A DNA stretch of 9,631 nucleotides. It comes from a virus. Its lineage: Duplodnaviria > Heunggongvirae > Uroviricota > Caudoviricetes. The notes below the pieces were generated by a model. It made no database searches and was not told the DNA's origin. It saw nothing but the letters and a program-made list of their open reading frames with translations. Below are positions 572-6,209 of the stretch, piece after piece; the first letter of the stretch is position 1; each line of letters opens with the position of its first letter. The position numbers and the translations under genes are program-made. The DNA is taken from IMG/VR virus record IMGVR_UViG_2737471845_000027; one strand, 5' to 3'.

Positions 572-961
572 ATGAAAACCATTGCAGAACAAATAGGCGA
601 GCGACTAAAAGCCACTCGCCTAAATCGAGGATTAAGTATGGGAAACTTGGCAAAACTATGTGGTTGGTCAGGTTCTTCTCGTATTGCTAACTACGAAGCT
701 GGCACCAGGAGTGTGGGGGCTGAGGATGCGATCATCCTCGGCCAAGCACTAGGCATTTCCCCCGCAGAATTAATGTTCGGTGAACAGGAAAACACTTACT
801 CGTGGTTAAATGATAACCAGAAAAAAATGCTAGAACTGTTTAATCAGCTCCCAGGATCGGAACAAGCACGCATGATTGATCTGTTCGAAATCCGTCTTCA
901 AGAGCTTGATGAGTATGTGGAAAAATATCTAAGAAGCAGGCAACAGAAAAAATCCTCCTAA
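572..961 (+). CDS. racR: Prophage immunity repressor, HTH XRE family, no S24 peptidase domain (RacR-like)
   Basis: Track ORF 467..961; the first 35 codons overlap the operator-rich intergenic DNA, so I place the start at ATG 572 (MKTIAEQIGERLKATRL...). HTH at about residues 20-60. Start is uncertain. Confidence 0.8.
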   Translation: MKTIAEQIGERLKATRLNRGLSMGNLAKLCGWSGSSRIANYEAGTRSVGAEDAIILGQALGISPAELMFGEQENTYSWLNDNQKKMLELFNQLPGSEQARMIDLFEIRLQELDEYVEKYLRSRQQKKSS

Positions 962-990: not shown

Positions 991-1021
991 AGGCTCTCGC
1001 TATTAGCGAGGGCTTTTTTTT
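991..1021 (+). terminator. Rho-independent terminator downstream of racR
   Basis: GC-rich hairpin ggctctcgc-tatta-gcgagggc followed by a run of nine T (1013..1021). Confidence 0.7.
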
Positions 1022-2184: not shown

Positions 2185-2719
2185 ATTAATAACTCTCTAC
2201 TGTAAGGGTATTAAAATGCTATCACAAACTCTCGCTGTAGGGGTATAGCCGAGACCACCGAGCCTGAAGTGGTAAAAAGACAGGCACACAACACGAAAGC
2301 GCACGGCGAGGCTGTTAGTTCATAAATGGTCTGTCGTTAAATTTACGTCGACCGTGCGCTTCCGGTTGTGGCACTCCGCGAAATGGCGCGGTGGTAAGTA
2401 TGGCGGGGTTATTCATTCCCAGTTGAGGACACCGGGTTGTCAGGTTGACCATACGCTTAAGTGACAACCCCGCTGCAACGCCCTCTGTTATCAATTTTTT
2501 GGTGACGTTTGGCGGTATCAGTTTTACTCCGTGACTGCCCTGCCGCCCCTTTTTAAAGTGAATTTTGTGATGTGGTGAATGCGGCTAAGCGCACGCGGAA
2601 CAGTTAAAAGCATCAGTGTTATGGGTGGATTATCCGGCGTTAATTGTTAACTGGTTAACGTCACCTGGAGGCACCAGGCACCGCATCAACAAAGTTCATT
2701 TGTAAAAATGGAGATAATT
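2185..2719. promoter_or_regulatory. 535-bp non-coding region between divergent sieB and kilR (pL-equivalent position)
   Basis: No ORF longer than about 33 codons on either strand. GC-rich core at roughly 2280..2600. 9-bp inverted repeat gggttgtca (2434..2442) / tgacaaccc (2462..2470). Weak stem then ccccttttt at 2511..2554. Candidate sieB promoter on the minus strand near 2200..2240. Confidence 0.4.
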
Positions 2720-2941
2720 ATGATTGCACATCACTTCGGAACTGATGAAATACCACGTCAGTGTGTGACTCCTGGTGATTATGTTCTTCATGAAGGCCGG
2801 ACATATATCGCCTCGGCAAACAATATTAAAAAGCGAAAACTTTATATTCGTAACCTGACTACAAAAACATGCATTTCTGACTGCATGATTAAAGTCTTCC
2901 TCGGTCGTGATGGTTTACCTGTAAAGGCGGAGTCATGGTGA
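2720..2941 (+). CDS. kilR: KilR, Rac prophage killing protein (cell division inhibitor)
   Basis: Track ORF 2708..2941; GGAG at 2710..2713 is 6 nt before ATG 2720. 73-aa product [16 protein letters not shown]... recognised as KilR. Confidence 0.85.
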
Positions 2942-3184: not shown

Positions 3185-3430
3185 ATGATTACCAATTATG
3201 AAGTCACTGTTGTAACTACCGATGACATTGTTCACGAGGTTAATCTGGAAGGAAAGCGTATTGGCTACGTGATTAAAACAGAAAATAAAGAAACCCCATT
3301 CACTGTGGTTGATATTGACGGCCCATCAGGCAACGTAAAAACACTTGATGAAGGTGTCACAAAAATGAGTCTGGTTCACATCGGAAAGAATCTGCCCGCA
3401 GAAAAAAAGCCGGATTTCTGGCAACTCTGA
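3185..3430 (+). CDS. racC: RacC-like protein
   Basis: 81-aa track ORF with AAGGAG 6 nt upstream; sequence recognised as RacC, directly upstream of recE. Confidence 0.8.
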   Translation: MITNYEVTVVTTDDIVHEVNLEGKRIGYVIKTENKETPFTVVDIDGPSGNVKTLDEGVTKMSLVHIGKNLPAEKKPDFWQL

Positions 3431-3455
3431 TTGCAATGAAATTAAAAGGTGAAAT

Positions 3456-3487
3456 CTGAAAAAAGAAAGCCTGCACAACGTGCAGGC
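3456..3487 (-). terminator. Minus-strand rho-independent terminator in the racC-recE intergenic region
   Basis: Perfect hairpin gcctgcac-aac-gtgcaggc (3469..3487). On the minus strand it is followed by TTTCTTTTTTC (complement of 3458..3468). No T-run on the plus strand. Confidence 0.45.
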
Positions 3488-3557
3488 CTGAGTGAAGAAC
3501 CTGGGACATTTATTCATCACTCGCAGTAATTTTAATCTGAGTTGAGGTTAAAAAACA

Positions 3558-6209
3558 ATGAGCACAAAACCACTCTTCCTTTTACGGAAAGCGAAAAAAT
3601 CATCCGGTGAACCTGACGTCGTCCTGTGGGCAAGCGACGATTTTGAATCAACCTGTGCCACTCTGGACTACCTGATCGTTAAGTCAGGTAAAAAACTGAG
3701 CAACTATTTTAAAGCTGTTGCCACAAATTTTCCTGTCGTTAATGACCTTCCCCCTGAAGGTGAGATCGATTTTACCTGGAGTGAACGCTATCAACTCAGC
3801 AAAGACTCCATGACCTGGGAACTAAAACCGGGAGCAGCGCCAGACGACGTTCACCATCAGGAGGATGCACCGGAAACCGAAGAACCGACGGGAGGCCAGG
3901 AAGAAAACGCGCAGGCAGACGCCCACGAGGATTGCCAGGATTGCGAAGTCTCTGTAGCCACTTTGCGGTTCACACAGCGTCTTCTGCACATTTTTACGTA
4001 TGCAGCCGGGGATCGAAAATACCTGCATCATGCCACCCGTGAACAACGCAAACACATTACTGCTCTTGAGATGGATCAGGAAAACAGCTATGTCCAGAAT
4101 CTGCTGTTGGCCATACGCAGCATGGCAGAACCGACAACTCTGGATAATGCCGCCCTGCTCCGCCTGACTGATGCAATTAAGGCAGTGTTCTCTATCACGA
4201 AAAAACATCAGCCCTATGAATTTAAGAATTTCATTTCAGCCTGGCTGGATACCGAACACATTGATCGCGGTCTTCTGACAAAGGAATGGCGAAAAGGGAA
4301 TCGTGTTTCACGCATCACTCGCACGGCTTCCGGTGCTAATGCTGGCGGCGGGAACCTCACCGATCGCGGCGAAGGTTTCGTCCACGATCTGACGTCACTG
4401 GCGCGCGATGTAGCCACTGGCGTACTGGCCCGTTCAATGGACGTGGACATCTATAACCTTCATCCGGCACACGCTAAACGCATTGAGGAAATTATCGCTG
4501 AAAATAAACCACCCTTTTCTGTTTTCCGCGACAAATTCATCACCATGCCTGGCGGGCTGGATTATTCCCGCGCCATCGTGGTTGCGTCCGTGAAAGAAGC
4601 ACCAATTGGGATCGAGGTCATCCCCGCACACGTCACTGAATATCTGAACAAAGTACTGACTGAAACCGATCATGCCAACCCTGATCCGGAAATCGTGGAT
4701 ATTGCCTGCGGTCGCTCCTCGGCCCCGATGCCGCAGCGAGTAACAGAAGAAGGAAAACAGGACGATGAAGAAAAACCACAACCATCTGGCGCAATGGCAG
4801 ATGAACAGGCAACGGCTGAAACAGTGGAACCGAATGCAACTGAACATCATCAGAACACGCAGCCGCTGGATGCTCAGTCACAGGTAAATTCTGTTGATGC
4901 GAAATATCAGGAACTGCGGGCAGAACTCCATGAAGCCCGGAAAAACATTCCATCAAAAAATCCTGTCGATGCCGATAAATTGCTTGCTGCATCACGTGGT
5001 GAATTTGTTGACGGAATTAGCGACCCGAACGATCCGAAATGGGTTAAGGGGATCCAGACTCGCGATTCTGTGTACCAGAACCAGCCAGAAACGGAAAAAA
5101 TCAGCCCGGATGCGAAACAACCTGAGCCAGTAGTGCAACAGGAACCGGAAATAGTCTGCAATGCCTGCGGTCAGACTGGCGGGGATAACTGCCCTGACTG
5201 TGGTGCGGTGATGGGCGACGCAACATACCAGGAAACATTCGGTGAAGAGAATCAGGTTGAAGCTAAGGAAAAAGATCCGGAGGAAATGGAAGGCGCTGAA
5301 CATCCGCACAATGAGAATGCTGGCAGCGATCCGCATCGCGATTGCAGTGATGAAACTGGCGAAGTCGCAGATCCCGTAATCGTAGAAGACATAGAGCCAG
5401 GTATTTATTACGGAATTTCGAATGAGAATTACCACGCGGGTCCCGGTGTCAGTAAGTCTCAGCTCGATGACATTGCTGATACTCCGGCACTGTATTTGTG
5501 GCGTAAAAATGCCCCCGTGGACACTACAAAGACAAAAACGCTCGATTTAGGAACCGCTTTCCACTGCCGGGTACTTGAACCGGAAGAATTCAGTAACCGC
5601 TTTATCGTAGCACCTGAATTTAACCGCCGTACAAACGCCGGAAAAGAAGAAGAGAAAGCGTTTCTGATGGAATGCGCAAGCACAGGAAAAACGGTTATCA
5701 CTGCGGAAGAAGGCCGGAAAATTGAACTCATGTATCAAAGCGTTATGGCTTTGCCGCTGGGGCAATGGCTTGTTGAAAGCGCCGGACACGCTGAATCATC
5801 AATTTACTGGGAAGATCCGGAAACAGGAATTTTGTGTCGGTGCCGTCCGGACAAAATTATTCCTGAATTTCACTGGATCATGGACGTGAAAACCACAGCG
5901 GATATTCAACGATTCAAAACGGCTTATTACGACTACCGCTATCACGTTCAGGATGCATTCTACAGTGACGGTTATGAAGCACAGTTTGGTGTGCAACCAA
6001 CTTTCGTTTTTCTGGTTGCCAGCACAACTGTTGAATGCGGACGTTATCCGGTTGAGATTTTCATGATGGGCGAAGAAGCAAAACTGGCAGGCCAGCAGGA
6101 ATATCACCGCAATCTGCGGACCCTGGCTGACTGCCTAAATACCGATGAATGGCCAGCTATTAAGACGTTATCACTGCCCCGCTGGGCTAAGGAGTATGCA
6201 AATGACTAA
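3558..6209 (+). CDS. recE: Exodeoxyribonuclease VIII (RecE)
   Basis: 883-aa ORF with GAGGT RBS. N-terminus [26 protein letters not shown] and C-terminal nuclease region ([13 protein letters not shown]...) recognised as RecE. Internal Cys4 motif [15 protein letters not shown]. Confidence 0.95.

Follow-up and report, generated by a model that had tools for sequence, protein, structure and literature searches.

The racC-recE region of a Rac-like prophage

The window, by which we mean the whole 9,631-nucleotide stretch of DNA analysed here, represents the early-left arm of a Rac-like lambdoid prophage and is read along its plus strand. It carries a DicA-like repressor gene (467-961) and, within the kilR leader, a homologue of the small RNA DicF (2497-2548, plus strand; 71.9 bits, Rfam). 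This is followed by kilR, ydaE, a racC-like gene, recE, recT and ralR with RalA (Rfam RF02694; 7285-7463, minus strand; 217.6 bits), after which come excisionase and integrase genes, the host ryeA/sdsR locus and yebY. In the kilR leader, DicF is followed by an STnc100-like match (2538-2727, plus strand) that scores 45 bits against a threshold of 47; the small RNA annotated in K-12 at the place equivalent to DicF and this match is a different one, kilS.

The racC-like gene (3185..3459, plus strand) is frameshifted in the window by a run of seven adenines at 3402-3408, where most relatives have eight (A7, A8 and A9 are each seen among relatives). Because of this frameshift, the listed open reading frame ends at 3430, whereas the true stop codon is the TGA at 3457-3459. 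The A7 run could be a sequencing error or slippage-prone variation. Next in the operon lies the exodeoxyribonuclease VIII gene recE (3558..6209, plus strand), identified by Pfam domains (Exonuc_VIII, E = 5e-67, plus DUF3799) in agreement with the RefSeq annotation at near-identical loci. The recE gene is itself a mosaic: for its first ~100 residues there are two unrelated versions, MSTKPLF... and MSTDKQV..., whose breakpoint coincides with the ATG, and the region 3860-4300 shares just 30-70% identity with K-12.

Between the racC-like stop and the recE ATG (3558) lies a spacer of 98 nt. On the sense strand, its downstream end can fold into a hairpin, UUUUAAUCU-GAGUUG-AGGUUAAAA (3530..3553, plus strand; -6.3 kcal/mol, z = -2.3), whose 3' arm covers AGG, most of the Shine-Dalgarno sequence GAGG (3544-3547). 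Viewed as DNA, the same positions form an imperfect palindrome (TTTTAATCT, 6 nt, AGGTTAAAA) located inside the spacer of the antisense promoter proposed below, and this palindrome could be a protein-binding site.

A conserved minus-strand terminator

The sequence-only reading had placed a hairpin at 3469..3487 with a T-run on the minus strand only, and both the sequence and a terminator scan bear this out. The core stem GCCTGCAC/GTGCAGGC (3469-3487) encloses the loop AAC; on the minus-strand RNA, the full terminator hairpin is AGGCCUGCAC-GUU-GUGCAGGCUU (3467..3489), with 10 pairs (6 GC, one G.U), a loop of 3 nt and a folding energy of -15.5 kcal/mol on its own (z = -6). In this orientation, the stem is followed by the T-run TCTTTTTTCA (tail TCTTTTTT), whereas the plus-strand hairpin leads into CTGAGTGAAG and has no T-run behind it. 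The resulting U-tract UCUUUUUUC (3458..3466, minus strand), where the RNA is expected to end, abuts the racC-like stop codon, given that the true stop is the TGA at 3457-3459.

With loose settings, the terminator scan returned 12 sites in the window against 10.7 expected, which amounts to no overall enrichment. With strict settings (at least 8 pairs, at least 5 GC pairs, a loop of 3-8 nt and at least 6 T in 8), three sites were found, among them 3467-3489, against a mean of 0.025 per dinucleotide shuffle (2.5% of shuffled windows). A minus-strand terminator of such quality is far beyond chance. The other two strong terminator-like sites lie just past the DicA-like gene (992-1014, plus strand) and inside it (597-619, minus strand).

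To place the spacer in a wider context, we turned to complete E. coli genomes, 1,781 of 5,426 of which contain it. The 210-211 copies collected here comprise 26 distinct spacers, and these fall into two discrete alleles, A (the window) and B (K-12). The alleles are 93-100% identical in their flanks and only 60-70% identical over the segment 3470-3529. This divergent island coincides with the predicted transcribed segment, and within the RNA the largest allele difference concerns the body (3490..3522). In both alleles, folding nevertheless yields a 5' hairpin with the terminator hairpin directly behind it, and in a manual alignment the base of the 5' stem changes from G-C to C-G between them. 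One spacer that resembled a third allele proved to be an IS1 insertion (H30).

Across an alignment of 21 distinct spacers, the nine-pair terminator helix is paired throughout, with standard pairs in 188 of 188 pair cells and compensatory changes at two pairs (AU/UA and AU/GC); slid controls are 18-46% paired, and RNAalifold predicts the same helix. The minus strand hence offers a GC-rich stem-loop with an immediate U-tract and a helix that is kept with compensatory changes. In 14 cells, the minus-strand RNA has a G.U pair where the plus strand would have an A.C mismatch, a bias that leans towards function on the minus strand, although it involves few independent changes and does not reach statistical significance. 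The loop of the terminator (3477-3479) varies and flips, reading AGT or ACT in allele A and TATGG or CCATA in allele B, which suggests repeated inversion within the palindrome. Such a loop suits a terminator rather than a sequence-specific loop. Two loci in which the racC end has diverged (L013 and L122) still have a T5 run next to the stem.

Each of the two spacer alleles is found with each of the two unrelated recE N-terminal modules, the junction falling precisely at the ATG, so the spacer behaves as an independent module. When distant racC relatives were sought at the protein level, only near-identical loci came up.

The K-12 Rac prophage holds a diverged version of the same spacer, for which an in vivo 3' end has been published. 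The curated Term-seq 3' ends in Supplementary file 1 of Adams et al. 2021 (PMC7815308) include position 1417486 (+) of NC_000913.3, which runs antisense to the racC-recE operon and is classed there as 'antisense, racC'. The printed flank shows a hairpin, with the 3' end 4 nt past the stem, in the U-tract (PMC7815308). This position is listed three times, once for each of three growth conditions, and two sheets of the file give 185,664 and 146,140 reads, compared to 66,697 for sokC and 6,222 for sgrS in the same table (PMC7815308). It was not found in the table of Rho-dependent (bicyclomycin-sensitive) regions of that study. An in vivo Rho-independent 3' end in the U-tract is therefore on record for the K-12 homologue only, as the Term-seq data describe the K-12 allele, not that of the window, and report 3' ends only. 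The claim of the sequence-only reading that the hairpin terminates transcription running against the operon gains support from this, since the homologous K-12 hairpin marks an abundant antisense 3' end. The terminator and its conservation are established, as is the abundant antisense 3' end for the K-12 allele.

Other resources gave no further trace of this RNA. The RefSeq record annotates ralA and kilS in Rac and nothing at the position of the antisense 3' end. We found no matching start site in the Cappable-seq supplements, and none in the racC-recE spacer among the gene-assigned start sites of Kim 2012. The Hfq CLASH tables contain only an unrelated CyaR-recE chimera, and a literature full-text search for the hairpin sequences gave no match. 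The searched text and supplements of the Shinhara 2011 small-RNA sequencing study hold no racC entry and no recE gene entry, a weak negative because genome coordinates there may differ. Elsewhere in K-12 Rac, the Term-seq tables list strong 3' ends in the racR-ydaG spacer and inside racR, at 1419679 (-) and 1420148 (-) (PMC7815308). The Term-seq files searched show no entry named ralA and none at the annotated end of RalA, 1413734 (PMC7815308).

Candidate antisense RNA and comparison with IsrB

What we infer is where the RNA starts, which promoter it uses and how it affects recE. As the sequence-only reading had pointed out, a minus-strand TAAAAT lies at the complement of 3529..3534; this candidate -10 element is 24-29 nt from the recE ATG. 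The weak TTGTTT that had been described 17 bp upstream of it is likewise present (complement of 3553-3558), with a spacer that measures 18 bp. As a candidate -35 element, it has 3 of 6 consensus matches and overlaps the A of the recE ATG (3558). Together, TTGTTT-18 bp-TAAAAT matches the consensus at 8 of 12 positions, below the threshold of the terminator/promoter tool, and in a rough position-weight scan the pair ranks 53rd of ~96,000 position/spacer combinations in the window. With about one equal match per 370 nt of strand, the promoter is by score alone not beyond chance. TAAAAT is invariant in 211 sequences (26 distinct spacers) while neighboring bases vary; five of its six bases were not part of the pattern used to collect the spacer copies. 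This conservation could simply reflect constraint on the overlapping recE ribosome-binding region. A second weak promoter-like site on the minus strand (3734-3706; AGGAAA, 17 bp, TAAAAT) would produce an RNA of 240 nt that runs to this terminator as well.

The antisense RNA predicted from these elements would span 3459..3522 on the minus strand (~64 nt), its 3' end taken from the K-12 homologue data and its 5' end from the candidate promoter. Of the ~65-nt transcript originally proposed, the K-12 3' end and the IsrB precedent described below speak for the RNA, against a promoter score at chance level. From 3522 to 3459, it is predicted to fold into two adjacent hairpins (-26.8 kcal/mol, z = -5.0). 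The body consists of the 5' hairpin GAGUGAUGAA...UUCUUCACUC (3490..3522, minus strand; -9.1 kcal/mol, z = -2.2), which in the K-12 allele is not significant (z = -0.75). Rfam 15 returned no family for the RNA at any threshold, in the window or in the K-12 allele.

We also considered small open reading frames in the spacer, including a possible type I toxin, but discarded them for lack of conservation between the alleles: no small frame is shared on either strand, frame and sequence differ, and candidate starts fall inside the hairpin stem. The spacer lacks the conserved small toxin frame of a type I toxin-antitoxin pair, and the known pair RalR/RalA lies 3.7 kb away. Full complementarity to the convergent mRNA is given by construction, the RNA being the reverse complement of a spacer inside one operon. 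Within the window, the span searched, no complementarity of at least 11 nt to other parts was found.

A second group of recE operons, comprising 80 viral-contig loci, was reached via a Citrobacter homologue (34% identity). Its spacers show no significant similarity to that of the window, with local alignment scores within the shuffle range. In this group, too, the upstream stop codon is directly followed by a GC hairpin with an A-run before it on the sense strand, and the stem of this hairpin undergoes compensatory changes (CCCGC/GCGGG, GCCGC/GCGGC and GCCCAC/GTGGGC). The minus strand of these spacers corresponds to the Rfam family IsrB (RF01386), with 38.2 bits at three loci (L219, L227 and L245; threshold 35) and 27-32 bits at three others. 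Its start lies 42 nt from the ATG of the Exonuc_VIII gene, and 2 nt separate the end of the match from the upstream stop. Two details of the group may be mentioned: a repeated motif, ACCAAAGTT(A/C)AC, occurs in the IsrB-type spacer ~60-110 nt upstream of recE (L214-L293), and at three loci (L216 and two of the L229 type) a weak 4-bp stem replaces the terminator hairpin.

IsrB was described in Salmonella Typhimurium, where isrB-1 and isrB-2 belong to the Gifsy-2 and Gifsy-1 prophages, respectively, and were discovered via a search for 'orphan' terminators (Padalon-Brauch et al. 2008, PMC2330248). They lie between sbcA, the recE homologue, and STM1010/STM2631, on the opposite strand to both (PMC2330248). 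Northern blots and primer extension from the cloned spacer revealed RNAs of 88 and 94 nt, for which no function was reported (PMC2330248). When the Salmonella coordinates are mapped onto the relatives, the Rfam model would correspond to the shorter species, and the 94-nt RNA would start ~7 nt past TGT-TAGAAT. This TGT-TAGAAT and the TAAAAT of the window share an offset of 24-29 nt from the ATG; in half of the loci, a TAAGAT is found one base closer.

The predicted RNA and IsrB have much in common. Both occupy the minus-strand spacer slot directly upstream of an exodeoxyribonuclease VIII gene (sbcA/recE), have an intrinsic terminator abutting the upstream stop codon, would start ~36-42 nt from the ATG behind a -10-like hexamer at 24-29 nt, are short (88/94 nt versus ~64 nt) and come to light by the same 'orphan terminator' reasoning. 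They differ in that they lack any detectable sequence or covariance-model similarity, and in that three hairpins are predicted for IsrB and two for the RNA of the window. The IsrB covariance model, run up to E = 10, gave no match in the window (3400-3620) or in the K-12 allele; the RNA of the window is not a detectable IsrB member. The most economical account is a dedicated small RNA gene of ~64 nt that would be the E. coli positional counterpart of IsrB. The RNA is unnamed in E. coli, while its kind, a short antisense RNA in a lambdoid early operon, is known.

Three further systems illustrate this kind. OOP RNA of phage lambda is a 77-nt antisense RNA to the end of cII. Like the RNA proposed here, it is short and constitutive, has its own promoter and terminator, converges with a lambdoid early operon and overlaps an intercistronic boundary, but it belongs to the early right operon, with another target and another sequence, and it covers a coding end, whereas the RNA of the window would cover only an untranslated spacer. 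P22 sar RNA (~68 nt) is antisense to the ant leader, with a promoter within the leader/intercistronic region of its target. The short antisense RNA proposed here would share this placement of the promoter in the controlled gene's leader; sar, however, covers the ribosome-binding site of its target, whereas 36 nt would remain between the RNA of the window and the recE ATG, leaving the promoter alone to overlap the recE ribosome-binding site. RalA (179 nt) is a minus-strand small RNA of the same Rac-type early-left operon; as the antitoxin of RalR, it overlaps the toxin gene, in contrast to the racC-recE spacer, where no toxin-like frame was found.

Proposed mode of action and alternative explanations

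Taken together, we think it probable, if well short of assured, that the racC-recE spacer holds a minus-strand gene for a ~64-nt antisense RNA that acts in cis on the recE operon. A sigma-70-type promoter placed on the recE ribosome-binding region (-35 at 3558-3553, -10 at 3534-3529) would start the RNA near 3522, and the intrinsic terminator (hairpin 3489-3467 and U-tract) would end it at ~3459-3463, beside the racC stop. The product would be a noncoding RNA of ~64 nt with two hairpins. Counted from the recE ATG, it would match positions -99 to -36 of the operon mRNA with full complementarity, a stretch that belongs to the untranslated spacer. Its action would most likely be in cis, by pairing with stray or leaky operon transcripts, so that the duplex is cut or destabilized and less RecE and RecT is made while the prophage is repressed. 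We favor cleavage or destabilization of the duplex over a block of translation because the RNA would leave the recE ribosome-binding site uncovered; the proposed duplex/RNase III action is modeled on OOP. Upon induction, strong transcription of the operon would cross the antisense promoter and turn the antisense RNA off. Our literature search found no experiment linking the RNA of the window or IsrB to recE expression.

Alternatively, the terminator could be real without belonging to a dedicated small gene, and might instead stop longer, possibly spurious antisense transcripts arising inside recE, for example near 3699. The K-12 3' end would then belong to an RNA of at least ~240 nt covering the recE start, or to a stable 3' fragment. 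The site at 3734-3706 on the minus strand (TAAAAT at 3711-3706) scores similarly to or slightly better than the short-RNA promoter, and Term-seq, which gives 3' ends only, is compatible with a long RNA. The -35 element of that site (AGGAAA) is poor, however, and long untranslated antisense RNAs are commonly Rho-terminated, whereas the K-12 3' end is absent from the Rho-dependent list. As the 5' ends of the IsrB precedent fall inside the spacer, and as the divergent island and the invariant -10 element coincide with the short unit, we regard the long transcript as unlikely, though worth keeping in mind. Slightly less credence still goes to an RNA that works mainly in trans, associated with Hfq or ProQ and directed at host or other prophage mRNAs, its position in the recE leader being incidental. 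A terminator hairpin with a U-tail is also what trans-acting small RNAs have, and DicF and SdsR, both encoded in the window, act in trans, which counts in favor of this option. So does the Rfam description of IsrB as an Hfq-binding RNA. Against it stands the observation that the alleles have almost no common single-stranded sequence and hence could not share a seed region. Moreover, the search for complementarity of at least 11 nt, which covered the window and not the host genome, gave nothing elsewhere, and the sense transcript of the same allele is the one target that each version is certain to have.

A different possibility is that antisense transcription itself matters, with RNA polymerase at the promoter hindering operon transcription into recE and the terminator merely protecting racC and kilR from antisense read-in. 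The overlap of the promoter with the sense leader and the very short transcription unit would fit, and the authors of the IsrB paper raised steric hindrance of transcription as an option for 5'-overlapping small RNAs (PMC2330248). A weak promoter would be a poor roadblock, however, and the high RNA level in K-12 together with the conserved fold suggests that the RNA product is selected; we consider interference of this sort improbable as the main function. Both transcriptional interference and trans action are live but less likely than the cis-acting antisense RNA. It is very improbable, finally, that the hairpin serves the plus-strand mRNA only, by stabilizing it or directing its processing, and that the minus-strand T-run is a by-product of an A-rich spacer. 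The inverted repeat does fold on the sense strand too, but this explanation is contradicted by the abundant 3' end of minus orientation exactly in the K-12 U-tract. In addition, the 14 G.U pair cells exist on the minus-strand RNA only, and the T-run stays by the stem where its surroundings change, with no T-run on the plus strand.

The Rac genes recE and recT are the basis of RecET recombineering, and why recE stays silent (the sbcA phenotype) is a long-standing question. Silencing or perturbing RacR strongly raises the expression of Rac genes, racC, recE and recT among them. As racR silencing derepresses the operon, the main cause of recE silence appears to be repression of the operon promoter by RacR. 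A link between the antisense RNA and recE silence or sbcA, as had been suggested for this element from the start, is speculative, and the RNA could at most be a second layer of recE control. If the cis-acting antisense RNA is real, an abundant and unannotated RNA on the K-12 recE leader would provide this second layer, and IsrB would gain a candidate target in the adjacent recE homologue. That unrelated sequences fill the same slot in two prophage groups speaks for selection on the slot as such. Since the retron toxin RcaT has RecE listed among its triggers and RacC among its blockers, regulation at the racC/recE boundary may also bear on phage defense.

A bolder and, in our estimation, doubtful generalization is that antisense RNAs guarding recE are a modular feature of enterobacterial lambdoid prophages, with exchangeable 'specificity' versions represented by the E. 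coli alleles, IsrB and its variants. Pairing would be confined to the leader that belongs to each version, so a resident prophage could shut down recombination genes in a phage of the same allele that enters or shares the cell. Phage-phage recombination would then be shaped by allele-matched silencing, and RecE could be kept from triggering the RcaT host defense.

One further rearrangement touches the recE leader. In E. coli HZ13 (L213), an IS1 element lies directly upstream of the leader and replaces the racC side of the spacer; it might thereby drive recE much as an sbcA mutation would.
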